Positions 29,250-47,090 are shown, counted from the first letter of the stretch. The stretch: 50,538 bases of DNA from Rhodanobacteraceae bacterium (GCA_025924775.1 JAICHS010000001.1:1-50538); one strand, 5' to 3'. Notes: generated from the sequence alone by a model not told the origin. A program made the numbers and translations.

Positions 29250-30329
29250 ATGGGGCGACGAATCCTGTACGGCATCTATCACTGGGGCCTCGGGCATGCG
29301 ACGCGTAGCGTGGGCCTGATCCGCGCGTTGCTGGCGCGCGGTGATTCCGTGACCATCGTGGTGGCGCCGGGGCCGGGCATGTGCCTGCTGCAATCCGAGC
29401 TTGGCGACGCCTGCGAATTTTTCCCGTTCCGCGACACGCCGGCGCCCTTCAGCCGCTATCCCGCGATCTTCTACTTGCGCATGACCGCGGCGATGCCGTG
29501 GGTGCTGGCGGGTTACCGGCGCGAGCACCACCTCGCCGAAAAGCTGGTGGCCGAGCGACACTTCGACTGCGTGGTGTCCGACAGCCGGCTGGGACTGTGG
29601 TCGGCCGCGGTGCCGAGCTATTGCATCTTCCATTCGATCCACCAGCGCGTGCCGTTTTTCAGTGGGTTTACCGAACGCTTCGTGGAACGTGGGCAGCGCG
29701 ATCTGCTGCGCGGTTTCAGCAAGATCCTGGTCCCGGACGTTGCGGACAACGGCGGCCTGTCGGGCTGGCTGGGCCACGACCCGGTTTTCGATTGGGGCGA
29801 GGGCAGGCTGGTTTACATCGGACCGCTGTCCAGCGTGCCGCGCATGGACGTGGTGCAGGACATCGATGTGTTCTTTTCGGTGTCGGGTATCGAGCCGCAG
29901 CGTGGTCTGCTGGAACGCCTGGTGCTGGCGGCCTTGCCGTACCTGTCCGGGCGGATCGTGGTAACGCTGGGGCGACCGCAGGACGTCGAGGCACGGCGAG
30001 ACATCGGAAGTGTCACGGTATATGGCTACCTCGACCGAAAGCGTCAGGCCGAGATGCTCAACCGCGCCAAGCTGGTGATGACGCGCTCGGGCTACACCAC
30101 GCTTATGGAACTGGCAGGGCTGGGTCGCAAGGCGTTGTTCGTGGCGACGCCGGGGCAGAGTGAGCAGGAATATCTTGCGTACTTCCACCACGAGCGCGGA
30201 CACGTGTGGGCGGTCGAACAAAAACATCTGGACATCCCGCGTGACCTCGAGCGTGCGCGCGCGACCGCCGGCATTCCCCGGATGGACGTCTCGGCGTCAA
30301 TCGGGAATTTTCTGTCCGTCATCGGATGA
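29250..30329 (+). CDS. GT-B fold glycosyltransferase (MurG / MJ1255-like)
   Basis: ORF 29226..30329 (GTG) trimmed to ATG 29250. MGRRILYGIYHWGLGHATRSVGLIRAL is the GxGH loop. The C-terminal nucleotide-sugar block is MTRSGYTTLMELAGLGRKALFVATPGQSEQEYLA. Its 3' end overlaps the convergent HpnL-like gene by 33 nt. Confidence 0.7.
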   Translation: MGRRILYGIYHWGLGHATRSVGLIRALLARGDSVTIVVAPGPGMCLLQSELGDACEFFPFRDTPAPFSRYPAIFYLRMTAAMPWVLAGYRREHHLAEKLVAERHFDCVVSDSRLGLWSAAVPSYCIFHSIHQRVPFFSGFTERFVERGQRDLLRGFSKILVPDVADNGGLSGWLGHDPVFDWGEGRLVYIGPLSSVPRMDVVQDIDVFFSVSGIEPQRGLLERLVLAALPYLSGRIVVTLGRPQDVEARRDIGSVTVYGYLDRKRQAEMLNRAKLVMTRSGYTTLMELAGLGRKALFVATPGQSEQEYLAYFHHERGHVWAVEQKHLDIPRDLERARATAGIPRMDVSASIGNFLSVIG

Positions 30330-31295
30330 GGCGGGTTGCCGGGACTTTGGCATCTCGCGCCACATCAGCCCCACGATCGGCAGGCACAACAGCCAGATGG
30401 CGGCCGTCCACACGATGCGGAAGCCGAGCATCAAGGCCAGTCCGTTGGTGTAGTCGATGCCCCATGCGTGCGCCGCCAGCATGCCCAGCAGCTCTACCGT
30501 GCCGATCTGGCTGAACAGGCCCGCGCCAACCAGAATCATCGCCAGCGAGAACAGGTAAATCGTCGCGGCGGTGAGGTAACCCAACTGGTGCGCATCCATG
30601 CCGCGCCCGACCAGCCAGAAGGCCAGCGTCAACGCACCCAGGTACACCGCCGCCAACACGATGCTGATGGCCAGCATCAAGGGCGTGGACAACTTGCGCA
30701 GGCCCCGCAGCATTTCCAGCCCCGTGTGGGCGCCACGGCGCATCCACGCGCGCGACAGCCTGGCGAGGTGTGGGTGCGCGCGTTCGCCGAACACCACCCC
30801 GCCCGCCAGCAGCAGCGCGAACAGCGCCAGCATGGCCACGGCGATCCAGCGCAGGTCCGGCCAACCGGGGATGCCGACCACCGCCAGAAACAGGTACACC
30901 GCTGCAATTTCGGCCAGCAGCATCATCACGGTCGCGGATGCGCTGCGGCCAATGTGCACGCGCCGCGACGCCGACAGCACCCAGTTTTGCGAAAACAATC
31001 CCAGCGGCAGCGTCACCGTCAACTCGCCGACCGCGAACGCCAGCCAGAACGGCCGCGGTGGAATCCGCACGTCGATCTGGTTGAGCATCAGCTTCAGCTG
31101 CGCGGCCTTGCACACGAGATAACCCGCCGCCGCCGCCAGCGACAGCCACAGCACGCGAGCGGGCAACCTGACGACGCGCGTGAGCACCAGGTGCACGTCG
31201 CCGAGGCTGAAAGCGAACGCCAGCAGCGCCACCGCCAGCAGGATCGGCAGGATCAGCGTCGGCTTCAGCAAGGCGTGCGCCACGGCTTTCAGCAT
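30297..31295 (-). CDS. Polytopic membrane protein, LPG-synthase-TM / UPF0104 family (HpnL-like)
   Basis: 332 aa with about 8 predicted helices (MLKAVAHALLKPTLILPILLAVALLAFAFSLG...). It is the last gene of the hpnH operon (7-nt overlap with the acyltransferase). The HpnL label is by family resemblance plus context, not a search. Confidence 0.6.
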   Translation of the reverse strand: MLKAVAHALLKPTLILPILLAVALLAFAFSLGDVHLVLTRVVRLPARVLWLSLAAAAGYLVCKAAQLKLMLNQIDVRIPPRPFWLAFAVGELTVTLPLGLFSQNWVLSASRRVHIGRSASATVMMLLAEIAAVYLFLAVVGIPGWPDLRWIAVAMLALFALLLAGGVVFGERAHPHLARLSRAWMRRGAHTGLEMLRGLRKLSTPLMLAISIVLAAVYLGALTLAFWLVGRGMDAHQLGYLTAATIYLFSLAMILVGAGLFSQIGTVELLGMLAAHAWGIDYTNGLALMLGFRIVWTAAIWLLCLPIVGLMWREMPKSRQPASSDDGQKIPD

Positions 31296-32593
31296 GGCAA
31301 TACCCGCGCGACGTCGGGTACGAGGTCCTCAAGATTGTTGTCGAGGTAACGCACAACGTTGGCGGGCGTGTGCCAGCCGGGCGGCGCATCGCGCGAGCAG
31401 GCGTTGCGGAAGCGATCGCCCTCGCGGATCAGGAGTTCGCGGCGCTCCAGCCAGCGCAAGCGGGTGTTGACGATGCGGGCGACGCCGGCGTGCGCGAACA
31501 GCGGGTCCAGGCAAGGATGCACGCTGTGCAGCGCCGCATGCGCGTGCACGCACCAGTCCACCAGTTCAGCGCGTGTGAACGCCGTGGGTCCGTGCAGCAA
31601 CCAGTGCGCCAGCAGATGGCTGGGCGTGACCGGCGCCAATCCGAGGATCGCGTGGCGCAGGCCGGCATCGAATGCACGCCGATCCAGCGTGGTATCGGCG
31701 CGAAAGCGTTCGCCGATGCGGATCACGACCCGCGAACGGCCCGGCGCCAGCGTGTCGTAGGCAAGCGCCATCGGCTGGATCCAGGGTGGTGCCGCGGCCA
31801 TGTGCACGAGCCGGAAGAAACCGGCGCGGACGCGGCAGAAATGGCCGTCCATGGAAATGGTGCCTTCGGGCGCGAAGTACACACAGCGTCCCTGGTCCAG
31901 TCGTTGCGCGAAGTGGTCCAGTTGCGTGGTAACGGTGGTCCGCAACCTCGTGGCGATGGCGCGCCGCGCCCCCGGCTGCAAGCGACGCAAACCCCACCAC
32001 CCGTCCAGCGTTGCAGGGGGTGCGCGCGCCAGGCCATCGGCCAGCGCGGCGTGGCGCACCGCAAGCTCGCGCAGGCCGCGCGCATTGAGTAGTTCAGCAC
32101 AATCGGTCTGGCCCAAGCCTGCGTTGCACAGTGCCTGCAGCGCTTCGCCCAGTGTGAATTCCCGCATCCGGCGCATCGGCTCGGCGCGGCCCAGCGGGAA
32201 AAACCAGGTCAGCGAGATGCGCCCAAGCAAGGCCGGCAGCGGTTTGGGCCAGTGCACGGTCAGGCGTGACAGGATGCCGGGGCGGAACAGGTCCTCGCGC
32301 GTGGCGAAGAACGGCAACGGCCATTCAAAGCGCAACCCGCGCCGCCGCACCAGCACGGTGCCCAGCATCGGTCCATCCACGTCGCGCTGGTGGTTGGATG
32401 CAATCATGGTTCCGGGCGCGGTATGGAACGCCTCGGGCAGGATGACGCTACGCCGGTAGAACGCGTCGATCCACAGGTCGAAGCCCAGCTCGAGCAGCCA
32501 GCTGCCGAGCGGATGCGGATCCAGCCCGGCGTCCGGCAGCCACGGGAAGGCCCGGCGCGTTGGGTTCGGCGCAGGGGCGGCGTGGCGTTGCAT
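31289..32593 (-). CDS. PlsC/LPLAT-type acyltransferase with a long C-terminal extension
   Basis: 434 aa. Motif I is IASNHQRDVDGP (HX4D), with FFATREDLF and motif III YFAPEGTIS. About 200 further residues have no motif I recognise. Zero-nt spacing after the GT2 gene. Confidence 0.65.
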   Translation of the reverse strand: MQRHAAPAPNPTRRAFPWLPDAGLDPHPLGSWLLELGFDLWIDAFYRRSVILPEAFHTAPGTMIASNHQRDVDGPMLGTVLVRRRGLRFEWPLPFFATREDLFRPGILSRLTVHWPKPLPALLGRISLTWFFPLGRAEPMRRMREFTLGEALQALCNAGLGQTDCAELLNARGLRELAVRHAALADGLARAPPATLDGWWGLRRLQPGARRAIATRLRTTVTTQLDHFAQRLDQGRCVYFAPEGTISMDGHFCRVRAGFFRLVHMAAAPPWIQPMALAYDTLAPGRSRVVIRIGERFRADTTLDRRAFDAGLRHAILGLAPVTPSHLLAHWLLHGPTAFTRAELVDWCVHAHAALHSVHPCLDPLFAHAGVARIVNTRLRWLERRELLIREGDRFRNACSRDAPPGWHTPANVVRYLDNNLEDLVPDVARVLPC

Positions 32594-33712
32594 TCATGCC
32601 CGTCCGCGCAGATAGCGCCGGCCCTTCCACACCGAGCGCGTGCCGGCGAGGCCGCGTCCCGCGGAATACCAGGTCGCGGCCAGGAAAAAGCCGGCGGCGA
32701 GCGGCAGCAGCAGCGCAGCCAACGGGTTGCGGCGGTAGTACATCAGCGTGGGCAGATAACACGCGAGCAACGCCAGCACGGCCAGCAGCCCGATGGCGGT
32801 GGTGGCCTCGTTGCGGCCGCAGGCAAGCGCCAGCACCGGGACCCAGAACGCCAGGACCAGCAGGACCGAGGCGGCGAGTACCCGCGCCAGCGATTCGTGC
32901 AGCTGCACGAACGCGGTGCGCGCCAGCATGTGCGCGATGTCGCGGAACCCCGCGCGGCGCTCACTGGTGGCGTCGCGGGTCAACCCGATCCAGCAGCGGT
33001 AGCCGGCGTGCTTGAGGTGCGCGGCGAGGGTGCAGTCGTCGATCACGGCGCCGCGCCATGCGGCGAAGCCGCCAACCGCCAGCAGCGCCTCACGCTCGAG
33101 CAGGACCACGCCGCCGGCCGCTGCGGCGACGCGCGATCCGGCGCGGTTGGCCAGCGCAAACGGGTACAGCAGCTTGAAGAAATACACGAACGCCGGCAGC
33201 AGCCAGCGCGCCGCGAGGCCGCGCCAGCATGGCTCGGCGCACAGCGACGCCAGCGCGCAACCTGCATCGACCCGGCGTTGTAGCGGCGCCAGGATTCCGG
33301 GCGCCAGACGGATGTCGGCATCGAGCAGCAACACGCGCGGGGTGGTGACGTGCGCAAGACCTTGTTGCAGCGCCCACAACTTGCCGGTCCACCCGCCAGG
33401 GGGTGGCGTGCCGCGAATGACGCGCAGGTGGCCCAGGCCGCTGGTGCGCGCGATGGCCGCAGTGTCGTCGCTGGATTCATCGTCGACCACGAGCACCGCC
33501 GCGTCCGGCGCGGCCCGTGCCAGCGCGCGCAAGGTCGGGCCGATCACCGCGGCCTCGTTGCGTGCCGGGATCAACACCGTGAAGTCATTGCGCGGCGGCA
33601 CCGCGGGCGCGTCGGCTTCCAGCTGTTCGCGGCACGCCCACGCGCGCCACGGCGCCAGCATTACAGCGATCCAGCCGGCAAGCGCGACAGCGGCAAGGAT
33701 CAGCAGCGGCAT
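32594..33712 (-). CDS. Family 2 glycosyltransferase, hopene-associated HpnB-like
   Basis: ORF 32594..33799 trimmed to ATG 33712 (MPLLILAAVALAGWIAVMLAPW, TM). GT-A core is FTVLIPARNEAAVIGPTLRAL ... VLVVDDESSDDT ... GGWTGKLWALQQG ... LLLDADI. C-terminal TM helices are present. 10 nt downstream of hpnH. Confidence 0.7.
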   Translation of the reverse strand: MPLLILAAVALAGWIAVMLAPWRAWACREQLEADAPAVPPRNDFTVLIPARNEAAVIGPTLRALARAAPDAAVLVVDDESSDDTAAIARTSGLGHLRVIRGTPPPGGWTGKLWALQQGLAHVTTPRVLLLDADIRLAPGILAPLQRRVDAGCALASLCAEPCWRGLAARWLLPAFVYFFKLLYPFALANRAGSRVAAAAGGVVLLEREALLAVGGFAAWRGAVIDDCTLAAHLKHAGYRCWIGLTRDATSERRAGFRDIAHMLARTAFVQLHESLARVLAASVLLVLAFWVPVLALACGRNEATTAIGLLAVLALLACYLPTLMYYRRNPLAALLLPLAAGFFLAATWYSAGRGLAGTRSVWKGRRYLRGRA

Positions 33713-33722
33713 GGCGTTTGCG

Positions 33723-34853
33723 TCAGTGCTGGATGCCGCCGAAGTGCGCGATCGGGACGTCGCTGTGCGGATGCATCGGCGGTGGTGGCGTCGCGTCATA
33801 CATCAGCGGCGGATCGGCGGCGAACGGGCCGGTGAGCTTGGGGCCGCGCAGGCTTGCCCACAATGCCTTCCACGGACGCGCGATCGAATCGGCGGCCGCG
33901 GTGCCCTCGAAACCACAGTGCGCCATGCAGTTGGCGCACTTGGGGTTGCGGCCGACGCCGTAGTGGTCCCAGTCGGTGTTGTCCAGCAGCGCCTGCCAGG
34001 TCGGCTCATAGCCTTCATCCACCAGCAGGTAGCACGGTTTCTGCCAGCCGAACACGTTGCGGCAGGGCATGCTCCACGCGGTGCACTGATAACCCTGGTT
34101 GCCGCACACGAAGTCGATGAACAGGCTCGACTGCGAGAGCGCCCACTTGCGGCGATGCTGCTGCCTGTTGGTGAAGATCTTGCGCATCAGTTCCTTCGAC
34201 TGCCGCCGGCCCATGAAGACGTCCTGGCGCGGTGCATGCTCGTAGGCAAAGCCGGGCGAGAAGGTGATGCCATCGACCTTCAGATCGTTCGTGGCCCAGC
34301 TGAAGAACTCGGCGACCTCATCCGGTTTGGCCGTCTGGAACAGCGTGGTGTTGATGTTGACCCGGAACCCGCGGCGCTTGGCCTCGCGAATGGCGGCGGT
34401 GGCGATGTCGAACACGCCCTCGCGGCCGACGCTTTCATCGTGGCGTTCGCGCATGCCGTCCAGGTGTACCGAAAATGTCAACTGGTCGGACGGCGTGAAC
34501 AGGTCGAGCTTCTGCTGCATCAGGATCGCGTTGGTGCACAGGTACACGTACTTGCCGCGCGCGATGAAGCCATCGACGATGGCCTTGATGTCCTTGTGGA
34601 TGAGAGGCTCGCCGCCAGCCAGCGACACCATCGGCGCACCGCACTCGTCCACCGCCTGCATGCATTCCTCGACCGTGAGGCGTTGCTTCAGGATGTGCGA
34701 GTCGTAGTCGATCTTGCCGCAGCCGGGGCAGGCCAGATTGCACTGGAACAGGGGTTCCAGCATCAGCGTCAGCGGATAGCGCTGAACGCCGCGCAGTTTG
34801 CGCCCGATGATGTAGCTGGCAACCTTGAGTTGCTGACGAATGGGAATGGACAT
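33723..34853 (-). CDS. hpnH: Adenosylhopane synthase, hopanoid-associated radical SAM protein HpnH
   Basis: 376 aa, ATG 34853 with a GGAGG RBS. MSIPIRQQLKVASYIIGRKLRG, then LMLEPLFQCNLACPGCGKIDY (CxxxCxxC) and SLAGGEPL. The C-terminal cysteine-rich tail is CANCMAHCGFEG. Confidence 0.9.
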   Translation of the reverse strand: MSIPIRQQLKVASYIIGRKLRGVQRYPLTLMLEPLFQCNLACPGCGKIDYDSHILKQRLTVEECMQAVDECGAPMVSLAGGEPLIHKDIKAIVDGFIARGKYVYLCTNAILMQQKLDLFTPSDQLTFSVHLDGMRERHDESVGREGVFDIATAAIREAKRRGFRVNINTTLFQTAKPDEVAEFFSWATNDLKVDGITFSPGFAYEHAPRQDVFMGRRQSKELMRKIFTNRQQHRRKWALSQSSLFIDFVCGNQGYQCTAWSMPCRNVFGWQKPCYLLVDEGYEPTWQALLDNTDWDHYGVGRNPKCANCMAHCGFEGTAAADSIARPWKALWASLRGPKLTGPFAADPPLMYDATPPPPMHPHSDVPIAHFGGIQH

Positions 34854-35071
34854 CGCTGCCTCCGCTTCGCGCGTGTGCGTCGAATATTACCGGTGCGCGA
34901 CGCACACCGGTGGGCCGCCGACGATGGTGGACCGGCGCGTGTCAACGCGGCGTTTAGGCGCTGCGCACGGCGGATTCGTTGGGTTTCAGGGCGGATGCGC
35001 CGCCCACCGTTGCTGCGTGCGGCTAGTGTATGCTGGCACGTGATTCCACGGATCGTCAGGAGGCCGTCGCC

Positions 35072-35497
35072 ATGGCTGCCATTGCCGAACGGACGCGGGT
35101 TGCATTGTTCCCCGTCAACGCCGTGCTCGTGGCCGGGGCCACGTCACTGTTCATCGGCGCGCTGCTGAGCGACATCGCCTACTTCCGCAGCTACCAGATC
35201 CAGTGGAACAATTTCTCGTCGTGGCTGCTGGCCGGCGGCCTCGTCATCACCGCACTGGCATTCCTGTGGTCGATCGTCGAGTTGTTCCGTGCCCGCTGGC
35301 GCACGTGGCCGGCCTGGGCCTATTCCGTGTTGCTGCTGGCGACCTGGATAGTCGGCTTCATCGATGCGCTGGTGCACGCCAAGGACGCGTGGGCGACCAT
35401 GCCAGCCAGCCTGGTGCTGTCGGCCATCGTCGTGGCACTGGCGTGCCTGTCACTGGCATTTGCCTGGGCCGGGCTGCGTGCGGGAAGTGCGCGATGA
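35072..35497 (+). CDS. DUF2231-like membrane protein (4 TM)
   Basis: ORF 35030..35497 trimmed to ATG 35072, with the RBS caggagg 8 nt upstream. FPVNAVLVAGATSLFIGALLSDIAYF ... WLLAGGLVITALAFLW. Its stop overlaps the next start (ATGA). Confidence 0.6.
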   Translation: MAAIAERTRVALFPVNAVLVAGATSLFIGALLSDIAYFRSYQIQWNNFSSWLLAGGLVITALAFLWSIVELFRARWRTWPAWAYSVLLLATWIVGFIDALVHAKDAWATMPASLVLSAIVVALACLSLAFAWAGLRAGSAR

Positions 35498-36903
35498 AAC
35501 GCATGAATCTGCTGGCCGTCACCGCCGCTGCGATCCTGCTTGCCGGTTGCAGCGGCGGCAATGCGCCGCCCGAGCAGTACGGCGCCAATCCACAACTCCC
35601 GACCCCGCAGCGCGGCCTGTTGCCCAACATGACGATCGCCAGGCCGGCGGCCTGGGGGGATCGGTTGCCGACGGTGCCGCAGGGTTACGCGGTCAAGGCG
35701 ATTGCGACCGATCTTCGCATTCCGCGCCAGACCCTGGTGCTGCCCAACGGCGACATCCTTGTAGCCGAAGGCCGTGGCGGCAATGCGCCGAAACTGAAAC
35801 CCAAGGATGTGATCGCCAGCTACATCAAGGCCAAGGGTACGAGTCCGGTCAAGGGCGGCAACCGCCTGACCCTGCTGCGCGATGCGAATGGCGATGGCAC
35901 CTACGAATTGAAGACCGTTTTTGCCGATCACCTCAATGCGCCGTACGGATTGGCACTGGTGGGCGACACGCTCTACGTCGCCGACCAGGATGCGCTGGTG
36001 AAGTTCCACTACACCGTCGGCCAGACCCATGCGGACGGCGCGCCGGTCAAAGTCACCGACCTGCCTTCGGCGATCAACCATCACTGGACCAAGGCGTTGG
36101 CCGCCAGCGCGGACGGGCGGTACCTGTACGTCGGCATCGGCTCGAACAGCAACATCACCGAACGCGGCATGACCGCCGAAGTTGATCGCGCGCGGATCTG
36201 GCAGGTCGATCCGCGAACTGGAATGCATCGTGCCTATGCGACCGGCTTGCGCAATCCCACCGCGCTCGCGATCCAGCCCGGCACGGGGGCGCTGTGGGCG
36301 GTGGTGAACGAGCGCGACGAAATCGGCCCAGGCTTGGTGCCCGATTACCTCACCTCGGTGCGCGCGGGCGGCTTCTACGGCTGGCCGTACAGCTACTGGG
36401 GACGACACGTGGACGCCCGCGCCCAGCCGCAGGATCCGCAAAAAGTCGCGTCGGCAATCGTCCCCGACTACAGCCTGGGCTCGCACGTGGCCGCGCTCGG
36501 AGTCGCGTTCTCCTTGCCCGCGATGGGCGCGAAGTTTGCCGACGGCGTGTTCGTCGGCGAGCACGGTAGCTGGAACCGCGCCCATCCGGTTGGCTACAAG
36601 GTAGTGTTCGTGCCGTTCCGCGACGGTCATCCCGCCGGCGATCCGATCGATTTCGTGACGGGCTTTCGTGGCAAGGATGGGTTGACCCGCGGCCGGCCGG
36701 TCGGCGTGAGCGTTGATCCGCGCGGCGCGCTGATCGTTGCCGACGACCTGTCCAACACGATCTGGCGGGTGACGCCCGTCAAACCGGCAGCCGCAGCCAA
36801 CCCGCCCGAGTCCATGCCGGCGCCCCGCGAGGCACCACCGGCGGCACCCGCGACCGCGCCTGCTGCGGCGACGCCCCGTGCGCCCGGCGTGCCACAGGCG
36901 TAA
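35494..36903 (+). CDS. PQQ-dependent sugar dehydrogenase (sorbosone / soluble aldose dehydrogenase family) lipoprotein
   Basis: ATG 35494 inside ORF 35203..36903. MKRMNLLAVTAAAILLAGC|SGG is a lipobox. Beta-propeller blocks are PRQTLVLPNGDILVAEGRG, APYGLALVGDTLYVADQDALV, HWTKALAASADGRYLYVGIGSNSN, GLRNPTALAIQP, GFYGWPY and GEHGSWNR. There is a Pro/Ala-rich C-tail. Confidence 0.8.
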   Translation: MKRMNLLAVTAAAILLAGCSGGNAPPEQYGANPQLPTPQRGLLPNMTIARPAAWGDRLPTVPQGYAVKAIATDLRIPRQTLVLPNGDILVAEGRGGNAPKLKPKDVIASYIKAKGTSPVKGGNRLTLLRDANGDGTYELKTVFADHLNAPYGLALVGDTLYVADQDALVKFHYTVGQTHADGAPVKVTDLPSAINHHWTKALAASADGRYLYVGIGSNSNITERGMTAEVDRARIWQVDPRTGMHRAYATGLRNPTALAIQPGTGALWAVVNERDEIGPGLVPDYLTSVRAGGFYGWPYSYWGRHVDARAQPQDPQKVASAIVPDYSLGSHVAALGVAFSLPAMGAKFADGVFVGEHGSWNRAHPVGYKVVFVPFRDGHPAGDPIDFVTGFRGKDGLTRGRPVGVSVDPRGALIVADDLSNTIWRVTPVKPAAAANPPESMPAPREAPPAAPATAPAAATPRAPGVPQA

Positions 36904-37114: not shown

Positions 37115-37714
37115 TCAGGCTTCGCGCTGGCGCGGCGACGCCGCGGTGGCGCCCGGCAAGCGTGACACGAACTCGCCACGCAGGCGCTGCCATTCCATTT
37201 TCAGCCAGGGCGTGAAGCGCTCGGGCGTGTCGGCGATCTCGCGATCCAGTGCTGCGGGTTTGACGTAGCGCCATGCGGCGATTTCGGTGGGGTTGACGTG
37301 CACGGGCGCATCGGACCGGCCGACGTACACCCAGCACAGTTCGGTTTCCGAACCCGCGTCGCCGAACTCGGCGTGGTACTGGAACTTGTAGATGAACTCG
37401 AGTGGGCAGGCGAAACCCAGCTCTTCGCTCAGGCGCCGCTGCGTCGCAGTGTCCATGTCTTCGCCGCCGCGCGGGTGGCTGCAGCAACTGTTGGCCCAGT
37501 AACCGGGCCACAACGGCTTGCCGGGCGCGCGTTGCTGCAGCAGCAATTCGCCCGCCGGATTGAATACGAACAGCGAAAACGCGCGGTGCAGGATGCCGCG
37601 GCCCGCGTGTGCGTCGGCCTTGGAGGCGTGGCCAACCTCGCGGTCGTCCGCATCCACCAGGATCAATCGCTCGGAGTCGAACGAGACGACACGGTTGTCT
37701 TGTTGCTCAGCCAA
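37115..37714 (-). CDS. idi: Isopentenyl-diphosphate delta-isomerase, type 1 (Nudix)
   Basis: 199 aa. LHRAFSLFVFNPAGELLLQQRAPGKPLWPGYWANSCCSHP ... SETELCWVY aligns with E. coli Idi. The start is TTG 37714 (GGAGA RBS 6 nt upstream), overlapping the upstream stop by 8 nt. There is no ATG alternative; internal TTG and GTG starts are possible. Confidence 0.85.
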   Translation of the reverse strand: MAEQQDNRVVSFDSERLILVDADDREVGHASKADAHAGRGILHRAFSLFVFNPAGELLLQQRAPGKPLWPGYWANSCCSHPRGGEDMDTATQRRLSEELGFACPLEFIYKFQYHAEFGDAGSETELCWVYVGRSDAPVHVNPTEIAAWRYVKPAALDREIADTPERFTPWLKMEWQRLRGEFVSRLPGATAASPRQREA

Positions 37715-39965
37715 TGCTGGTCTCCATCGCCTGATAACCCGCCTGCTGCAACGCGCGCGCGACGCGGCCCGGATCGTCCGGGCACAGCGCGATCATCGCG
37801 CCGCCGCCACCACCGCCGGTGAGCTTGGCGCCCACCGCGCCGTTGGCGCGCGCGACCTGGATCATTTCTTCCAATTCCCAACTGGATACCTGCAAGGCGT
37901 TCAACTGGCCCTGGCAAATATTCATCAACTCGCCGAACTGTACGAGGTCCCAGGCATCCAGTGCCTTGATGCCTTGCATCGCCAGCGAATCGATTTCGTC
38001 GAAGATGCGTTCGTACAGCGCCTTGTTGCGCTGCCACGCCTCGCGCACGCGCCGCACGGTGCGTGCGGTCAGGCTTTCCACGCCGGACAGGCCGATCACC
38101 ATCGGCAGCGGTTTGACGAAGTGCAGCGGTTCGACCACCGGCGGTTCACCGCGCTGGAACAGCAGCGGCTGGCCGTACGTGGCCACCGTGTTGTCGATGC
38201 CCGAAGGCGTGCCGTGCGCAACGCGCTCGCACTCGTAGGCCAACGCACATACCTGCTGGTCGGTCAGGCCGAGCTCGCAGTGCCGGTCCAGCGCGCGGAT
38301 CACCGCGACCGCCAGCGCCGCCGAACCGCCAAGGCCATTGGCACGCGGCAGGCTGGGGTACACTTGGATGCGCAACGGGCGATCGCTGAGATCAAGCTTG
38401 GCCAGGATCAGTTCCAGCGATTGCAGGAACGAACCCGGATGCTTGGTGCCCGGATGCAGGCGTGATTCGACGCCCCAGCGCGGGATGATGAGTTGGGTTC
38501 CGTCCTTCGATTCCTCGGCGCGCGCGCGGATTGCCATCGGCACCGGCACCGCGAGCGCGTGGCGGCCGTACACCACGGCGTGCTCGCCCAAAAGGATCGC
38601 CTTGCCGTAACCGGTGGCGTATTCGGCTTCGTCCAGCGGCTCGAAACCCTGGGCCACCGTCTTGGCTTCCGGCTGCACCTGGGTGCGCACCTCGGCGATG
38701 ATTTCCTTGGCCTTCCACACCTTGATTTCGCCCGAATCCAGCAGGCGTTCAACTACGGTGTCAAAGATTTCCGGCGTGGCGCCCGCGCTGACCGCGACCG
38801 AACGCGCGTGCAGCGTCATGTGGCCCTGCTGGATACCGTCGGTGACCAGTGCGCGCAGCGCCGAGAAGTTCTGCGCCAGCCCCACCGCGCCCATGATCTC
38901 GGCCAATTCACGGGCGGAGGCCACGTGCAGCAGGCGCAGGTTCAACGCGACGGTGGCGTTGGATTGCAGGTTGCCCCCGACGGTGCCGACCTTCATCGGC
39001 ATTTCGATGTTGCCGACCAGATTGCCGGCGTCGTCCTTGTACCAGCGCGTCAGCGAGCTGTAGTGCGCGCCACGCGCGGCGTAGGCGTGCGCGGCGGCTT
39101 CCAGTGCACGCCAGTCGTTGCCGGTTGCCAGCGCCACCGCATCCACGCCGTTCATGATGCCCTTGTTGTGGGTGGCGGCGCGGTAGGGGTCGCACACCGC
39201 AAGGTCGTTGGCCAGGATGATGCCGTCGCGCACCTGCTCGCCGTCGTAGCCCTTGCCCGCCAGCAGCGCGGTCGGGATCACGGCCTTGGCCCACACCAGC
39301 GCGCGGTCGGTGAGGTTGGAAAGGATCCGCAGGAACACCTTGCCGCCGGTGATGCCTTCCACCAGCGGCGCGACGCCTTCGCACATGGTGTTGACCATGT
39401 TGGCGCCCATCGCGTCGCAGGTGTTCACCAGCAGGTGCAGCACGACCATGTCGCGGCGCCCGTCCGCGGCCGGGTGGATGCGCACCTCGATGTCCTTGGC
39501 GCCGCCACCGCGGGCCACCATCTTGGGGTGCAGGCTGTTGGCGAGGTTCAGGATCTCCTGCTTGCGTTGCAGCAACGCGGCCTGCGCGGTCGCCGAGTTG
39601 TCGATGTCGACGATCTGCACCTGGCCGATCAGGATCGGGTCGGTGCTGCGCGTGGTGAAGCCACCGGCTGCGCGCACCAGCTTCGCGGCGGACGAAAGTG
39701 CCGCGACGATCGAAGGTTCCTCGACCACCAGCGGCACCACGCGGTCCGCCCCGTTGATCGAAAAGTTGAGGCCAAGCCCCAGCGGCAGGCCCATCACGCC
39801 GATCACGTTTTCGATCATCTTGTCGGCGCGCGCGACGGTGAGCGTATGCGCGCCGCTGGACAGGGTCTGGAAATCCTCGCGTGAAAGCATCCCGCGCTCG
39901 CGCACGAGGTTCACGCGTTCGGACACCGACAACTTGTAGAAACCCGGAAATCTCGACTGATCCAT
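37707..39965 (-). CDS. Fusion protein: class II HMG-CoA reductase (aa 1 to ~427) + mevalonate kinase (aa ~449 to 752)
   Basis: 752 aa, one uninterrupted frame, ATG 39965. HMGR part: KMIENVIGVMGLPLGLGLNFSINGADRVVPLVVEEPSIVAA, CDAMGANMVNTM, ATHNKGIMNG and GTVGG (compare Pseudomonas mevalonii MvaA). The linker is about aa 428-448 (QVQPEAKTVAQGFEPLDEAEY). MVK part (GHMP): GYGKAILLGEHAVVYG, LPRANGLGGSAALAVAVIRAL, HGTPSGIDN and GAKLTGGGGGGAMIAL. Confidence 0.85.
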   Translation of the reverse strand: MDQSRFPGFYKLSVSERVNLVRERGMLSREDFQTLSSGAHTLTVARADKMIENVIGVMGLPLGLGLNFSINGADRVVPLVVEEPSIVAALSSAAKLVRAAGGFTTRSTDPILIGQVQIVDIDNSATAQAALLQRKQEILNLANSLHPKMVARGGGAKDIEVRIHPAADGRRDMVVLHLLVNTCDAMGANMVNTMCEGVAPLVEGITGGKVFLRILSNLTDRALVWAKAVIPTALLAGKGYDGEQVRDGIILANDLAVCDPYRAATHNKGIMNGVDAVALATGNDWRALEAAAHAYAARGAHYSSLTRWYKDDAGNLVGNIEMPMKVGTVGGNLQSNATVALNLRLLHVASARELAEIMGAVGLAQNFSALRALVTDGIQQGHMTLHARSVAVSAGATPEIFDTVVERLLDSGEIKVWKAKEIIAEVRTQVQPEAKTVAQGFEPLDEAEYATGYGKAILLGEHAVVYGRHALAVPVPMAIRARAEESKDGTQLIIPRWGVESRLHPGTKHPGSFLQSLELILAKLDLSDRPLRIQVYPSLPRANGLGGSAALAVAVIRALDRHCELGLTDQQVCALAYECERVAHGTPSGIDNTVATYGQPLLFQRGEPPVVEPLHFVKPLPMVIGLSGVESLTARTVRRVREAWQRNKALYERIFDEIDSLAMQGIKALDAWDLVQFGELMNICQGQLNALQVSSWELEEMIQVARANGAVGAKLTGGGGGGAMIALCPDDPGRVARALQQAGYQAMETSIG

Positions 39966-39983: not shown

Positions 39984-41009
39984 TCAAGCAACTGATGCAA
40001 CCGCCAGACCCGCGGGGTCCGTTGACAAATCGATCACGGGAAAACCCGCGCGCGACGCGCGCCTGGCAAACTCCCGCAACCGCCCATCTTCCACGCCCAA
40101 CGTGATGCCGACGTCACCGTTGCCCGCGCCGCAGCTTTTGTAGACGCAACCGCAATCCGCGGCGATCGCCGCGATGGCCCGATGCTCACGGCTGGCGATA
40201 TCCACGCCCGCGGACTCGCCGAAGCGGGCCAGGGCATCCGCGTAAGCATGGAAGCTGGACAGGAAGGCAGCGGCATCGCTGGCGGCCAAGGCGTTGATAC
40301 CGCGTGACGAAATTGTAGCGAGTTCGTGCATCCCTTGTGCGTAACCGGCAGGCTCACGTTCGCGCCAAGCCGCGACCGCGGCCAGCATCGCGCCGGTCGA
40401 GGCGGGCCTGCCGCTGTACACGCAGCGCCAGTGCAGGCCGGACGGCCACGCGAGCGGCGCGACATGCGCGGCATCGCCTTCCAGCTGGAAGCGCGACAGG
40501 CCACCGACAAGCGACGCCGCGATGTCGATACCGCTGCCGCGGCCGTGCTGGATGCCGCGATGGGCGGCGATGGCGGTGTCGAGAGAAACCGGCGGTCGGT
40601 TTGCGCGTGCGTGCAAGGCGCCCAGCAACGCGACCGTCAGGGCGGCGCTGGAGCCCAGGCCCAGCTTGGCGCGGGCACCCGCGTGTTCGAAGTAGAACGC
40701 ATTGCTTTCGAGTTCGACGCGGCAGGGCGGCAGGGCTTCGCCACGCCCGAACTCGCCCAGCAGTTGGGCAACCCATGCGAGTTCGCCCGGTACCCCCTCG
40801 CGCCGGGCGTCGACGTCACCGCGCGCTGGCAGGCACGCCGCAAGTTCGAGCGTGGGCGAGACGATTTCCCAGTCCCCGCCGACGCTGTCGGCAAGCCGCA
40901 CGTGCGCGCGGCGGTTCACCGCCAGCACCAGCGCAGGCGCGCCTTCCAGCACCGCGTATTCGCCCAGCAGCACCAGCTTGCCGGGTGCGCTGGCCGTGAT
41001 GCGCGTCAA
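39984..41009 (-). CDS. Phosphomevalonate kinase (GHMP, ERG8/MvaK2 type)
   Basis: The track ORF 39984..41477 overlaps mvaD for 470 nt, so I trimmed it to TTG 41009, which overlaps the mvaD stop (TTGA). (M)TRITASAPGKLVLLGEYAVLEGAPALVLAVN is the PMK N-terminal signature. The GHMP motif is GLGSSAALTVALLGAL. 341 aa. The non-ATG start is inferred. Confidence 0.7.
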   Translation of the reverse strand: MTRITASAPGKLVLLGEYAVLEGAPALVLAVNRRAHVRLADSVGGDWEIVSPTLELAACLPARGDVDARREGVPGELAWVAQLLGEFGRGEALPPCRVELESNAFYFEHAGARAKLGLGSSAALTVALLGALHARANRPPVSLDTAIAAHRGIQHGRGSGIDIAASLVGGLSRFQLEGDAAHVAPLAWPSGLHWRCVYSGRPASTGAMLAAVAAWREREPAGYAQGMHELATISSRGINALAASDAAAFLSSFHAYADALARFGESAGVDIASREHRAIAAIAADCGCVYKSCGAGNGDVGITLGVEDGRLREFARRASRAGFPVIDLSTDPAGLAVASVA

Positions 41010-42037
41010 GCGTCGGCCTCGACCACGCGCGCGCCCGCGCCGAGTCCGCTCGGCAACACGTCCTCGACGCCCGCGACGCCGCGCAATGCCTCGACCACGC
41101 GCGCGGCGTGGTCCGGCAGGCACACCGCCTTCACCTGCGGCCCCGCGTCGATGGTGAAGAACACCCCCGTGCCGCCGCGCTGCAACTCGCGAATGCACTG
41201 GATGCACCCGACGGTCGCGGCGTTCCAGTAGATGAGGCCGGGTCGCGCGGACAGCATCACCGCGTGCATCGCAAGGCAACTGGCTTCGCCGGTGCGCGCA
41301 AGGCTCTCGAAATCGCGCGAGCGCACCGCGGCGCGGGCGGCGGCGAGGTCGGCAGGCACGGCCGCGATCCAGTCGCGGTAGTAAGGCGAGGTCTGCCGGG
41401 TACGGTCCATGCCGGCGCGCGAGCTGACGGTCTTCTTTTCGCGCGCGGTGATTGCGATCACGACTTCCAGTGGCCACGCCGCGGCTTCCAGCAGCGGCGT
41501 CGCGAAGGCGTCTTCGCCGTCGTCGCGCGTGCCCGCGGCCATTTCCACGAAGCCGCCGAAGATTGAACGCGCGGCCGAGCCGGAACCGCGTCGTGCGAGG
41601 ATCGACAATTCCCGTTGGTCCAGGTTCAACCCCAGGGCGTGGTCCACCGCGATCGCCAGCGCCGCGAAACCGGACGCCGACGATGCCAGTCCCGCGCCGG
41701 TGGGAAAGTCATTGCCGGATTCGATGTGCGCGCGCGTCGTGATGCCCGCGCGTGCGCGGAACAGGTCAAGAAACGCGCCGAGCTTGCGGCTTTGCGTGGC
41801 GTCGTGCCGGCCATTCAACGCGATGTCGTCAGCGGTGAGTGTGTCGTCAAAGCGCACGTGCGTGCGGGTGTGCAGCGCATCCAGCGTGATCGACAACGAA
41901 CCCGCCGCCGGCAGGTTCAAGGCATCGTCGCGCTTGCCCCAGTACTTGACCAGCGCGATGTTGGGTTGGGCTGTCGCAGTGGCGTGCCGGATTGGCGTAG
42001 TCATCCGTCGTAATTCGTCTTCAGTCACAGGGTACAT
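41006..42037 (-). CDS. mvaD: Diphosphomevalonate decarboxylase
   Basis: 343 aa. ATAQPNIALVKYWGKRDDALNLPAAGSLSITL, NDFPTGAGLASSASGFAALA, RRGSGSAARSIFGGF and FFTIDAGPQV are present. The start may be ATG 42037 or ATG 42004. Confidence 0.85.
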   Translation of the reverse strand: MYPVTEDELRRMTTPIRHATATAQPNIALVKYWGKRDDALNLPAAGSLSITLDALHTRTHVRFDDTLTADDIALNGRHDATQSRKLGAFLDLFRARAGITTRAHIESGNDFPTGAGLASSASGFAALAIAVDHALGLNLDQRELSILARRGSGSAARSIFGGFVEMAAGTRDDGEDAFATPLLEAAAWPLEVVIAITAREKKTVSSRAGMDRTRQTSPYYRDWIAAVPADLAAARAAVRSRDFESLARTGEASCLAMHAVMLSARPGLIYWNAATVGCIQCIRELQRGGTGVFFTIDAGPQVKAVCLPDHAARVVEALRGVAGVEDVLPSGLGAGARVVEADA

Positions 42038-42186: not shown

Positions 42187-43179
42187 TCAGCGGAGGTATC
42201 CATTGTCCCGGAACCATTGTATTGCGTCGGCCAGTGCCTCCCGCGCCGGGCGCGCGTACCAGCCGAGTTCGGTTTCAGCCTGCCGGCTTGAAAAATACAT
42301 CCGGTGCCGCGACAGCTTCACGCCGGCGACGCTGATGGTCGGCGGATTGCCGCTTATGCGTGCCCACGCCTCGGCCACGTGGGCAATCGGCAACACCGCG
42401 GCATGCGGCAGCTTGAGCCAGGGCCCGTGGCGGTGGGTGAGTTCGGCAATCGTTTGCAGGATGGCGCGCAGGCTGAGGTTTTCGCCCCCCAGCACGTAAC
42501 GGCGGCCGCGCTGCCCGCGCTGGTATGCCAGCACGTGGCCTTCGGCGACGTCGTCCACGTGCACGATGCACAGGCCGGTGTCGACATAGGCCGGCATGCG
42601 CCCGCGCGCGGCGTCGAGGATGGTGCGCCCGGTCGGCGTGGGCTTGCGGTCGCGCGGGCCGACGGGCGCCGCCGGGTTCACGATCACGATGTCGCTGCCG
42701 GCACGCGCGCATCGGCGAACCAGCGCCTCGGACAGGAACTTGGAACGCTTGTAGGCGCCGACCATGTCGGCCAGGCGTGCCGGCGTGGCCTCGTCGGCGG
42801 GCGTGCCATCGTGGTTGAATCCCAGCGTCGCCACGCTGGACGTGTGCACGATGCGGGCCACGCTGGAGCGTCGTGCCGCCGCCAGGATGTTGTGGGTGCC
42901 GCGCACATTGGCGCGGTAAATCGCGTGCGGGTCGCGCGCCCACAGCCGGTAATCGGCGGCGACGTGGAACAGGCCGGTACAGCCTTGCAGCGCGCGCTCC
43001 AGCGAGGGCGGATCCAGCAGGTCGCCACGGGCGGTCTCGATGGCCAAGCCGTCGAGGCTGGTGGTATCGCTGCCGGCCCGCACCAATGCACGCACCGGAT
43101 AGCCGTGGCGCAACAGCGCGCGCACCACCGCCGAGCCCACGAATCCGTTGGCGCCACTGACCAGGATGCGCCCGCTCAT
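42187..43179 (-). CDS. hpnA: Hopanoid-associated NAD-dependent sugar epimerase/dehydratase-like protein HpnA
   Basis: The track ORF 42187..43794 overlaps hpnG, so I trimmed it to ATG 43179 (ATGA overlap with the hpnG stop). MSGRILVSGANGFVGSAVVRALLRHGYPVRALVR is the Rossmann GxxGxxG. FHVAADYRLW and YKRSKFLSE (YxxxK) are present. 330 aa. Confidence 0.8.
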   Translation of the reverse strand: MSGRILVSGANGFVGSAVVRALLRHGYPVRALVRAGSDTTSLDGLAIETARGDLLDPPSLERALQGCTGLFHVAADYRLWARDPHAIYRANVRGTHNILAAARRSSVARIVHTSSVATLGFNHDGTPADEATPARLADMVGAYKRSKFLSEALVRRCARAGSDIVIVNPAAPVGPRDRKPTPTGRTILDAARGRMPAYVDTGLCIVHVDDVAEGHVLAYQRGQRGRRYVLGGENLSLRAILQTIAELTHRHGPWLKLPHAAVLPIAHVAEAWARISGNPPTISVAGVKLSRHRMYFSSRQAETELGWYARPAREALADAIQWFRDNGYLR

Positions 43180-43892
43180 GCGGCCAGCGACGCGGCGGTC
43201 GCCAGCGTGCGCCGGGCGTGCGCGAAATCCCGCGCCAGCGCGCGTGCCGCGCGCCAAGTCGTGGGGCCGCCCAGGGCGATCGCCGCGAGCATACGCAGCG
43301 AAAACCCGCCATCGGCGCCGTCCAGGGCGTGCACGATGCTCGCGGGCAGTTCGCGCGCCAGCGGGTCGCAAATCGCCTTGACGGCCACGAACGGCAGCTT
43401 GGCGCGCAGCGCGACTGCCGCGATCGGCGCGGCTTCCATGTCCACCGCGACGGCACCGCTGTGCGTGGCCAGTGCCTGTTTCTCGGCCGCTGAGGCCACC
43501 GGTTGCGGGGTCGACCACAGCGCGCCGCGGTGTACCCGCAGGCTGCCGGACAGCGCGGCGGCCAGCTGCTCGCTTGCCAGCGCGTCGGTGGCGAACCCGG
43601 GGTCGTCGTGTGCGTAGCGGATGTGGTCGGGAATCAGCACGTCGCCAGGCGCAAACCCGGCATCCAGCGCACCAGCCACGCCCCAGTTCGCCAACCGGGT
43701 GACGCCGCAGGTCAGCAGGCGTTCGGCGGCGCGCATCGCGTTGTGCGGGCCAATGCCCGACACCGCGATCCAGCCGCGGTGCCAGCGCTTGCACTCGCCG
43801 GGGTGCAGGCCGTACACACCGAGGCTGTGCGCTTCCGCCGGAAGCGCCACCACCAAGCCCGTGCCCTCAGTGAAACTGCCCGGTGTGGACAT
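43176..43892 (-). CDS. hpnG: Hopanoid-associated phosphorylase/nucleosidase HpnG (PNP_UDP fold)
   Basis: 238 aa. GLVVALPAEAHSL, IAVSGIGPHNA, LANWGVAGAL, GDVLIPD, AVAVDMEAAPIA and AVKAICD are present. ATG 43892 would overlap shc by 26 nt. An alternative is TTG 43856, preceded by GAGGG. Confidence 0.75.
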   Translation of the reverse strand: MSTPGSFTEGTGLVVALPAEAHSLGVYGLHPGECKRWHRGWIAVSGIGPHNAMRAAERLLTCGVTRLANWGVAGALDAGFAPGDVLIPDHIRYAHDDPGFATDALASEQLAAALSGSLRVHRGALWSTPQPVASAAEKQALATHSGAVAVDMEAAPIAAVALRAKLPFVAVKAICDPLARELPASIVHALDGADGGFSLRMLAAIALGGPTTWRAARALARDFAHARRTLATAASLAA

Positions 43893-45807: not shown

Positions 45808-45811
45808 GGCC

Positions 45812-46942
45812 TTACTTGAAGGCTTGGGCCGGTCCGCAGGCATCGCTGCGCGGCCAGGTGGAATGCGGGTCGGGCAGCAGCCCGCCCCAGTCGGAAGCCA
45901 GCGCCTGCAGCGGCAGGTCCTCCGCCATCCGACCGAACCAGCCGCGCAGCACCCGGCTGTAGCCGGCGAACAGCCGCGTGACGATGACGATCTTTTTCAC
46001 CACCTGCCGCGACACCTTCACCTGTGCGCCGGCGGTGAAGTCGGGCTTGGCCAGGATCGACGCCAGGGTCCGCATGGCCAGGCCCAGCGCGATCAGGCAG
46101 AAGCGGCGGATGCCGACTTCCCGTTCCGGAATCAGCAGGGTGTAGTCGAGCGCGTTGCGCAGGTGGCTGTGGGCGATACCGATCAGCTGCGCATAGGTGC
46201 GGCCAAATGCCGCCGGTTGCTGGCCGCGATGCACTTCTTCCAGTCGCACGCCGGCGCGCGCGAACAGGTCGTGCGGCAGCCAGCACACGCCGCGGTCGTG
46301 GTCCTCCCAGAAGTCCTTCAGGATGTTGGTCATCTGCAGGCCCTGTCCAAACGACACGTCGAGCGCGGCCATCGCGTCGCGGCGTTCAGCGATGCGGGGC
46401 GAGTAGTCGCAGAACAGGTCGGTGAGGGTCTGGCCGACGATGCCCGCGACGTAGTAGCAGTAGCGGTCCATCTCGCGCATGTTGGGGAGCCCGGCGACGC
46501 TGGCGCGGCGCTCGAAGCTGGGCATGCCGGTGCACATGACCTGCACGCAGCGCGCCAAAGCCTGGCGCTGCGCCAGGTTGAAGCCGTCGGTCACCTCGAT
46601 GATGGCCGGCGTGTGCGCCACCAGGTCAAGCTCCGCCGCCAGCGTGTTGCCGCGTAGCAGCGGTGCCAGGTCGCGGGCGAATGAAGCGGGATCTTCGGTT
46701 GCGGCGACCACCCGCGTGAAGCGGTCGTGGAACTCCTGCTTTACGTCGCTGGCCAAGGTCGCTTCGTCCTCGATGGTGTCCGCGATCCGGCACAACAGGT
46801 AGGCGTTGGCGATCACCCGGCGCAGGCGCGCGTCCAGTTGCGGAATCGTCAGCGCGAACGTGCGCGATACCGCGGGCAGGATGCGCGTTTGATAGGCTTC
46901 GGCGTCTCGTCGCGAAACGCTGGCGGAAGCTGTGGCGATCAT
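45812..46942 (-). CDS. sqs: Squalene synthase (single-enzyme farnesyl-diphosphate farnesyltransferase, Sqs type) with a C-terminal extension
   Basis: ORF 45812..47092 trimmed to ATG 46942 (AAGGAG RBS 9 nt upstream). AVSRTFALTIPQL, YLLCRIADTIEDE (first Asp-rich motif), YCYYVAGIVG and MTNILKDFWEDHDRG (second DxxED). At 376 aa it is longer than HpnC/HpnD-type enzymes. No hpnE-like oxidase is in the window. Confidence 0.75.
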   Translation of the reverse strand: MIATASASVSRRDAEAYQTRILPAVSRTFALTIPQLDARLRRVIANAYLLCRIADTIEDEATLASDVKQEFHDRFTRVVAATEDPASFARDLAPLLRGNTLAAELDLVAHTPAIIEVTDGFNLAQRQALARCVQVMCTGMPSFERRASVAGLPNMREMDRYCYYVAGIVGQTLTDLFCDYSPRIAERRDAMAALDVSFGQGLQMTNILKDFWEDHDRGVCWLPHDLFARAGVRLEEVHRGQQPAAFGRTYAQLIGIAHSHLRNALDYTLLIPEREVGIRRFCLIALGLAMRTLASILAKPDFTAGAQVKVSRQVVKKIVIVTRLFAGYSRVLRGWFGRMAEDLPLQALASDWGGLLPDPHSTWPRSDACGPAQAFK

Positions 46943-47062: not shown

Positions 47063-47090
47063 CGCGGCGCGGCGGCGCGCGCCGCCTGAC

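Follow-up and report, generated by a model that had tools for sequence, protein, structure and literature searches.

A conserved three-gene module, probably for lipid tailoring, linked to hopanoid biosynthesis genes in Rhodanobacteraceae and other bacteria

Five genes are found at positions 29250–34853 of a DNA stretch of 50,538 nucleotides from a Rhodanobacteraceae bacterium (GCA_025924775.1 JAICHS010000001.1:1-50538); the whole of this stretch is called the window below. Four of the genes are carried by the minus strand. In their order of reading, these are hpnH (33723–34853), coding for a radical-SAM adenosylhopane synthase of 376 amino acids (aa); a gene for a GT2 glycosyltransferase of the HpnB family (32594–33712, 372 aa), with one N-terminal and three to four C-terminal transmembrane (TM) segments; a gene for an acyltransferase of the GPAT/PlsC superfamily (31289–32593, 434 aa), predicted to be soluble or peripheral; and a gene for a PF03706 membrane protein (LPG_synthase_TM, MprF-TM/AglD-like; 30297–31295, 332 aa) with about eight TM segments. 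The fifth gene, on the plus strand (29250–30329), codes for a putatively soluble GT1/GT28-like glycosyltransferase of GT-B type (359 aa). The genes for the acyltransferase, the PF03706 protein and the GT-B enzyme are, in this order, the three members of what we call here the trio.

The genes were delimited from a listing of open reading frames (ORFs) combined with third-position G+C statistics, and checked against the gene calls that JGI had made independently on soil contigs nearly identical to the window; the ORF coordinates and the gene calls are the same for all five. A gap of 10 nt (33713–33722) separates hpnH from the GT2 gene, and the gap between the GT2 and acyltransferase genes is 0 nt. 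The start of the PF03706 gene overlaps the stop of the acyltransferase gene by 7 nt (31289–31295), and the convergent PF03706 and GT-B genes share a 3' overlap of 33 nt (30297–30329). An initial annotation of this DNA had listed the five genes with these spacings and with their families, and it is in agreement with the ORFs, the JGI calls and the family scans. The G+C content of the window is 64–71%. The closest relatives of the acyltransferase and GT-B proteins, the two that were searched, come from metagenome-assembled genomes (MAGs) of Rhodanobacteraceae.

The conservation of the locus was established by a scan of the GTDB species genomes, which gave 61 acyltransferase loci, all of them in MAGs. 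Six contexts of a distant acyltransferase clade (31–35% identity) and 23 metagenome contigs were added, and all loci were searched with the window proteins by tblastn. There are 49 non-redundant loci with at least 3.3 kb of downstream sequence. In 47 of them, the acyltransferase gene, followed by the PF03706 gene and then by the convergent GT-B gene, is intact, down to about 31% acyltransferase identity; the PF03706 gene comes directly after the acyltransferase gene in all 47 intact trios. This arrangement is more than the product of chance, since it is kept across dozens of species. The carriers belong to Rhodanobacteraceae, Nevskiaceae, Casimicrobiaceae/Burkholderiales, Ectothiorhodospiraceae, Thiohalorhabdus and other groups, and the only cultured one found is Thiohalorhabdus denitrificans (locus L067). 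The acyltransferase, the PF03706 protein and the GT-B enzyme thus form a module of three genes, probably for lipid tailoring, that are passed on together as one block.

All five genes had initially been taken for a single module. The assignment of the locus to a hopanoid-linked, lipid-tailoring region stands; the five-gene unit does not, because many loci with the acyltransferase, PF03706 and GT-B genes lack the hpnH/hpnB pair, which is thus not a constant partner of the trio. Only some of the trio loci have the GT2 gene, an accessory neighbour that travels with hpnH, and the two genes move as a unit where the locus is rearranged (L027, L087 and L089–91). The GT-B gene had been described as an extra, convergent gene. 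It is convergent, with the overlap indicated above, but it is a core member of the trio rather than an addition to it. It is also the best conserved of the three genes, with 79–87% identity in the closest locus group, where the acyltransferase shows 58–69%.

The trio is incomplete at two loci. At L062, only a fragment of the acyltransferase is left (10001–10636, residues 19–228), directly followed on the same strand by hpnH. No PF03706 or GT-B gene is found within 10 kb of this fragment, which may represent a decayed module. At L072 (10001–16534), a sulfotransferase gene (PF00685/PF13469) takes the place of the GT-B gene: the acyltransferase gene faces the sulfotransferase and PF03706 genes, both in opposite orientation, beside genes for squalene synthase (SQS) and squalene-hopene cyclase (SHC), which are read in the direction of the acyltransferase gene. 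This replacement points to a small lipid that is decorated on a hydroxyl, and hints at a sulfated rather than a glycosylated product in that lineage.

Linkage to hopanoid genes was counted at the 31 loci that are flanked on each side by 7 kb of sequence or more, with SHC, SQS, HpnG, HpnA or HpnH within 10 kb as markers. A hopanoid gene lies within this distance of the trio at 24 of the 31 loci, over a range of acyltransferase identity from 31% to 69%. The chance expectation, which we estimate from a single hopanoid locus of 10–15 kb in a genome of 3–4 Mb, is about 1%. By an operational definition of hopanoid-associated genes, which asks for enrichment near shc/hpn genes and for a microsynteny with shc or hpnH that recurs in different lineages, the trio is hopanoid-associated. 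The linkage is strong, but it is not obligatory at the locus level, since the seven other fully flanked loci have no hopanoid neighbour. Co-occurrence with hopanoid genes had been proposed in the initial annotation as a way to check the association of the acyltransferase with this pathway; at the level of the locus, the answer is positive.

The linkage is seen in about ten arrangements. The most frequent is hpnH–GT2–acyltransferase (23 loci, four of them with divergent SQS/SHC genes upstream), and a version with hpnH directly before the acyltransferase gene and no GT2 is found at L044 and L050. At 11 loci, the trio stands beside the gene for farnesyl diphosphate (FPP) synthase, with SQS–SHC–HpnG–HpnA downstream. 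The GT2 and hpnH genes are inverted and located downstream of the trio at L027 and L089–91. In Thiohalorhabdus denitrificans (L067, on LJCP01000010), the trio is divergent from SHC–HpnG–HpnH–HpnA; it is also divergent at L087, there from a block of hpn genes with GT2 among them. The GT-B gene is co-directional with the other two at L086. At L070, the trio is inside the hopanoid cluster, where the GT-B gene and hpnA overlap by 4 nt. A tight operon, dxs–ispA–hpnH–hpnG–hpnA–shc(–DUF116), is found between the acyltransferase and PF03706 genes at L069 (10001–21269), L076 and L081.

Some of these clusters have features of their own. In the L069 type, shc and the PF03706 gene closely flank the small DUF116 gene, which matches no NCBIfam model. 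The L070 cluster (6283–9468) includes a LytB(IspH)–UbiA fusion of 568 aa and a B12-binding radical-SAM protein with weak matches to HpnJ and HpnR (90 and 63 bits).

Each of the five proteins was compared with known families. HpnH is assigned with confidence: it scores 505.4 bits on TIGR03470 (cut-off 225) and matches PF04055 (Radical_SAM) and PF11946 (DUF3463). The GT2 protein has HpnB (TIGR03469) as its best family, with a full-length match of 299.6 bits that is below the curated cut-off of 379.25; the next family, CruG, gives only 85 bits, and the GT2 and GT21 Pfam families match as well. It is 41% identical to HpnB of Burkholderia cenocepacia, which itself reaches 595 bits with the HpnB model and whose gene also adjoins hpnH and hpnA. 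A search of the PDB by sequence with the GT2 protein yielded only a weak match, to ArnC-type GT2 enzymes. By its best family and by its adjacency to hpnH/hpnA-type genes the protein goes with HpnB. We take it for a divergent member of that family, and hpnH and GT2 for a canonical hpnH/hpnB pair.

The acyltransferase matches PF01553 with 39.8 bits (cut-off 23), although the Pfam alignment covers residues 220–276 only. The four motif blocks of the superfamily can be recognized over a longer part of the protein: HX4D at H68–D73 (block I), R99-E100-D101 (block II), P242-E243-G244-x-[V/I/L]-S247-x-D-G250 (block III) and P274..Y279-D280 (block IV). In an alignment of 41 diverse members of the family, H68, D73, P242, E243, G244, S247 and G250 show no variation, and R99, E100, D101, P274, Y279 and D280 show almost none. 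A helical insertion of about 100 aa (approximately residues 140–235) separates blocks II and III, and a conserved domain of about 135 aa (approximately residues 300–434) forms the C-terminus. About 200 residues of unrecognized C-terminal sequence had been noted in this protein before. Unrecognized sequence is indeed present, but it is not one tail: it is divided between the insertion and the C-terminal domain. A structure prediction had been suggested earlier for the C-terminal domain; the AlphaFold2 model has a pLDDT of 80.7. When this model is compared with the PDB by Foldseek, human GPAT1 (8e4y, E 1e-5) ranks first and PlsC of T. maritima (5kym, probability 0.97) comes next, whereas a search of the PDB by sequence gave nothing meaningful. 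No TM segment is predicted. The HX4D and PEG motifs and the fold place the protein in the GPAT/PlsC/LPLAT superfamily, and it is predicted to be a catalytically intact, soluble GPAT-like acyltransferase.

The family of this acyltransferase is small: a set of 1.84 billion representative proteins has only 235 clusters of it at 50% identity. Its architecture of about 430 aa is held down to about 25% identity. In PlsB and PlsC, the Arg of the block III motif EG[TG]R contacts the phosphate of the substrate, which is part of the binding of the glycerol-phosphate acceptor. At the corresponding position, 246, 35 of the 41 members in the alignment have V, I or L and the remaining 6 have N or T; none has R. 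The loss of this Arg across the family would fit a non-phosphorylated acceptor. The source databases label the protein a lysophospholipid or 1-acylglycerol-3-phosphate acyltransferase; PlsC proper was rejected, since the score on TIGR00530 is 16.8 bits, far below the cut-off of 103, and the block III Arg is missing. Among distant relatives, five (P0217, P0231, P0237, P0257 and P0264; about 810–856 aa) are fused to an N-terminal transporter of the major facilitator superfamily (MFS), and two (P0241, 698 aa, and P0250, 525 aa) carry a C-terminal PF03706 domain.

The membrane protein belongs to PF03706 (36.9 bits over residues 15–298, cut-off 33.4) and has about eight hydrophobic segments. The 7-nt overlap of its gene with the acyltransferase gene, together with the fused acyltransferase–PF03706 proteins of other bacteria, speaks for a translational coupling of the two genes. 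The protein had been described as HpnL-like. It does share the Pfam superfamily PF03706 with HpnL, but the likeness goes no further than this level: neither the window protein nor its orthologues at L067 and L070 match any NCBIfam model at E ≤ 1, the presence of the HpnL model TIGR03476 in the release being unconfirmed while neighbouring Hpn models are present. Its identification as HpnL was therefore rejected. The hpn region of B. cenocepacia, examined for a reference HpnL, contains none. MprF was likewise rejected, as the 332 aa correspond to the TM region only, with no other Pfam domain and without the C-terminal aminoacyl-phosphatidylglycerol synthase domain. A search of the PDB by sequence with the PF03706 protein found nothing meaningful.

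The GT-B protein matches Glyco_tran_28_C (PF04101) with 31.4 bits (cut-off 22) and Glyco_trans_1_3 with 29.7 bits. Its AlphaFold2 model (pLDDT 88.2) has the two Rossmann domains and the nucleotide-sugar domain of GT1/GT28-like enzymes. The top 40 Foldseek matches in the PDB are all GT1 natural-product enzymes or UDP-glycosyltransferases (UGTs), with E values of 1e-13 to 1e-10; they include OleD (2iya), CalG1–4, YjiC/YojK and the sterol glucosyltransferase UGT51, and MurG is ranked lower. By sequence, the PDB holds no relative. MurG was rejected, with 26.6 bits on TIGR01133, far below the equivalog cut-off of 250. The model thus identifies the protein as a predicted GT1-like small-molecule glycosyltransferase, and the enzymes nearest to it in fold act on lipophilic small molecules.

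The hpnH and GT2 genes are the distal end of a self-contained supercluster, leading from precursors to hopanoids, that combines hopanoid and mevalonate genes. The mevalonate genes, all on the minus strand and identified by NCBIfam and JGI/Pfam annotation, code for isopentenyl diphosphate isomerase (IDI, 37115–37714), a fusion of HMG-CoA reductase and mevalonate kinase (37707–39965, 752 aa), a phosphomevalonate-kinase-like protein (from 39984) and diphosphomevalonate decarboxylase (41006–42004). They are followed on the same strand by genes for HpnA (42187–43179, 467 bits, cut-off 368), an HpnG-like phosphorylase (43176–43946, 148 bits, below the cut-off of 187), SHC (open frame 43867–45996, 791 bits) and a eukaryote-type squalene synthase (open frame 45812–47128; TIGR01559, 112 bits, below the cut-off of 287). 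A divergent FPP synthase (331 bits) is encoded on the plus strand at 47037–47987. The squalene source in the window is thus the eukaryote-type enzyme and not HpnCDE.

A gammaproteobacterial mevalonate block is thus enclosed in the hopanoid cluster. The HMG-CoA reductase part of the fusion is of the NAD 'degradative' type, and the fusion gene is the most conserved of the region, with 86–95% identity across the closest Rhodanobacteraceae-type loci. No HMG-CoA synthase was recognized among the window ORFs scanned. The distant lineages L067 and L069 have dxs and ispA in place of the mevalonate block. Two genes of the plus strand, coding for DUF2231 and GSDH/DUF7133 (PVC-type haem-binding-like) proteins, are located at 35030–36903 between IDI and hpnH; this pair is present only in the near-identical contigs L001 and L002, and in no other locus searched. 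A YceI-like protein, of a polyisoprenoid-binding family, is encoded at 49060–49956 (plus strand), about 1 kb past the FPP synthase gene. Downstream of the five genes there are an aldehyde dehydrogenase gene, a short-chain dehydrogenase/reductase (SDR) gene, pyrD and murB, which are housekeeping genes, as are the other window ORFs scanned. A stand-alone Sulfotransfer_4 (PF17784) gene is found amid such genes at 9111–9872 (minus strand). The flanking genes (aldehyde dehydrogenase, SDR, pyrD, murB, DUF2231 and GSDH-like) were rejected as members of the module, being housekeeping or lineage-specific.

The organism is widespread: about ten studies of soil and rhizosphere provided the metagenome runs, more than 20 in number, that contain 91–94% of the k-mers sampled from the five-gene region (29250–34853). 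All five genes are also covered, at low depth, in soil metatranscriptome assemblies. Individual contigs of these assemblies extend across the hpnH/GT2 (33303–33752), GT2/acyltransferase (32472–32645) and PF03706/GT-B (30074–30460) junctions, which is compatible with co-transcription and with expression of the module in soil.

The trio probably makes an acylated and glycosylated membrane lipid, and we lean towards an extended hopanoid as its substrate. As to the product, we tentatively propose a fatty-acylated hopanoid glycoside, made on the inner leaflet and flipped by the MprF-type TM protein. Everything up to flipping would occur at the cytoplasmic side of the inner membrane. An early part would be played by HpnH, HpnG and downstream enzymes, which would supply an extended hopanoid polyol, for example bacteriohopanetetrol. 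The GT1-like GT-B enzyme would transfer a sugar from a nucleoside-diphosphate sugar to a hydroxyl of the hopanoid side chain, and the acyltransferase would place a fatty acyl group, taken from acyl carrier protein or from acyl-CoA, as an ester on the sugar or on a neighbouring hydroxyl. The PF03706 protein might present the substrate, or flip the acyl-glycosyl hopanoid to the periplasmic leaflet, as the TM domain of MprF does with lysyl-phosphatidylglycerol. Such a product would correspond, among hopanoids, to acylated steryl glycosides and to carotenoid glycoside esters. The data show the identities of the genes, the folds, the catalytic motifs, the conservation of the trio as a block and its recurrent linkage to hopanoid genes; which acceptor is used, how the steps follow each other and which way the lipid is flipped are inferred.

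Several points weigh against this proposal. The choice of a hopanoid as the substrate is derived from gene context and predicted folds. The trio has no hopanoid gene within 10 kb at L023, L038, L040, L049, L052, L068 and L071, all of them fully flanked, and several metagenome contigs likewise carry it without hopanoid neighbours. The isolated trios whose surroundings were scanned (L023, L038 and L040) are next to lpxB/rnhB, sugar-acid genes and regulators of GntR/LacI type. Because many of the loci belong to MAGs that are related to one another, the counts given above overstate the number of independent events. The metatranscriptome contigs carry no strand information and might include DNA carry-over. 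Finally, the MFS–acyltransferase fusions resemble LplT/Aas, suggesting a glycerolipid acceptor and inward flipping.

This last observation leads to a different function, in which the trio would make or repair a lipid other than a hopanoid, either an acylated glyco-glycerolipid or a lysolipid that is returned by the PF03706 protein and re-acylated in the manner of LplT/Aas. The proximity to hopanoid genes would then be due only to the clustering or co-regulation of envelope-lipid genes. We consider such a function rather unlikely. The five MFS fusions would fit it, as would the database names of the acyltransferase, the match of its fold to GPAT1 and PlsC, and the presence of the trio alone or beside lpxB in several lineages; GT28-type enzymes are also generally known to include diacylglycerol glycosyltransferases. 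However, it accounts poorly for a linkage to hopanoid genes that is found in about ten rearranged layouts, including one with a hopanoid operon between the acyltransferase and TM genes. The phosphate-contacting Arg of block III is gone from the whole family, and the fold of the GT-B enzyme is nearest to GT1 small-molecule enzymes, not to MurG or to monogalactosyldiacylglycerol (MGDG) synthase types. The same linkage bears on the idea that an unrelated conserved cassette sits next to hpnH by accident in this lineage, as might be supposed from the lineages in which the trio lacks hopanoid neighbours. With 24 of the 31 fully flanked loci linked in many distinct arrangements, from 31% to 69% acyltransferase identity, a fortuitous juxtaposition is very improbable: the inverted, divergent, embedded and split layouts cannot be explained by a single accident inherited vertically.

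The acceptor might also be a squalene-derived C30 carotenoid, which a glycosyltransferase and the acyltransferase would convert into a glycosyl fatty-acid ester. There is an experimental precedent for this type of reaction in Methylobacterium extorquens, where the GT2 enzyme META1p3663 and the lysophospholipid acyltransferase META1p3664 yield an acyl-glucosyl ester of such a carotenoid (PMC10448405); CrtQ/CrtO of the staphyloxanthin pathway are comparable. A squalene synthase gene is present within the cluster, and the window GT2 has the weak match (85 bits) to CruG, a carotenoid 2'-O-glycosyltransferase. This GT2 scores far higher on HpnB, however, and the recurrent neighbours of the trio (SHC, HpnG, HpnH and HpnA) belong to the cyclized hopanoid branch. 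No desaturase or oxidase of the CrtN/CrtP type (Amino_oxidase) is encoded in the eight Pfam-annotated neighbourhoods (L001, L004 and L067–L072) or among the window ORFs scanned. A carotenoid pathway was rejected on account of this lack of crtN or crtP nearby, and we regard a carotenoid product as highly unlikely.

The logic of glycosylating, acylating and flipping a lipid is already known; the novelty lies in the module of three genes and not in the set of five. For the C30 carotenoid of M. extorquens, for staphyloxanthin (CrtQ/CrtO) and for acylated steryl and cholesteryl glycosides, a glycosyltransferase and an acyltransferase are encoded beside genes for squalene-derived or sterol-like lipids, as in the trio. 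The expected logic is the same, a hydroxyl or carboxyl of the lipid being glycosylated before a fatty-acid ester is formed on the sugar. The trio differs from these systems in several respects. Its glycosyltransferase is a GT1-like GT-B enzyme and not a GT2, and its acyltransferase is a GPAT1-like protein of 434 aa with an insertion and a C-terminal domain. It has an obligatory third member, the PF03706 protein, and hopanoid rather than carotenoid genes as neighbours.

With MprF, the trio shares a PF03706-type TM module coupled to a cytoplasmic lipid-modifying transferase (by gene overlap in the trio, by fusion in P0241 and P0250), and the proposed modification of a lipid in the inner leaflet prior to its translocation. 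It lacks the DUF2156/GNAT-like aminoacyl-phosphatidylglycerol synthase of MprF, the partner being an HX4D acyltransferase, and its TM protein has about eight TM segments in 332 aa. The LplT/Aas, PlsB/GPAT1 and PlsC systems are similar in the HX4D/PEG fold of their acyltransferases, GPAT1 being the best structural match, and in the pairing of an acyltransferase with a lipid translocator; the fusion of distant relatives to MFS proteins recalls LplT–acyltransferase fusions. In the trio, however, the partner is a PF03706 and not an MFS protein, the block III Arg is lost and there is no acyl-ACP (acyl carrier protein) synthetase domain. These systems have no counterpart of the GT-B partner or of the hopanoid context.

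The initial annotation had regarded the roles of HpnB and HpnL as unassigned, and the literature supports this. A survey of 2025 on hopanoid production in Alphaproteobacteria regards hpnA, hpnB and hpnL as genes without an established function, and reports that no further obvious candidate genes were seen near the hpn clusters of this group (PMC12583986). A preprint of the same year on shc microsynteny in bacterial genomes lists HpnL, HpnM, HpnS and HpnT as uncharacterized neighbours and does not mention an acyltransferase (PMC12324291). HpnL (TIGR03476) is comparable to the PF03706 protein of the trio as an AglD-type membrane protein of this superfamily that is enriched near shc; like HpnB, it has no assigned function (PMC12583986, PMC12324291). 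The trio acyltransferase and GT-B enzyme appear in neither of these papers; the acyltransferase had rightly been placed outside the standard hpn gene list. No description of the trio was found in the literature on hopanoid acyltransferases, hopanoid lysyl-phosphatidylglycerol synthases, acylated bacteriohopanepolyol glycosides or Thiohalorhabdus. Its absence from the surveys may reflect its near-restriction to uncultured Gamma- and Betaproteobacteria.

Hopanoids are major membrane lipids of bacteria and key geological biomarkers. Many composite bacteriohopanepolyols have been seen by mass spectrometry for which, to our knowledge, the biosynthetic genes have not been identified, and the trio is a concrete candidate for a missing pathway of hopanoid tailoring. 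Its presence in the cultured bacterium Thiohalorhabdus denitrificans makes the hypothesis directly testable. If the proposal is correct, the product would represent a new class of composite hopanoids, the bacterial counterpart of acylated steryl glycosides. The PF03706 proteins associated with hopanoid genes, HpnL included, would then work as one half of a lipid-modifying machine with two components, the half that translocates the lipid or presents the substrate, and the abundant Rhodanobacteraceae of soil would be the source of an unrecognized bacteriohopanepolyol biomarker.

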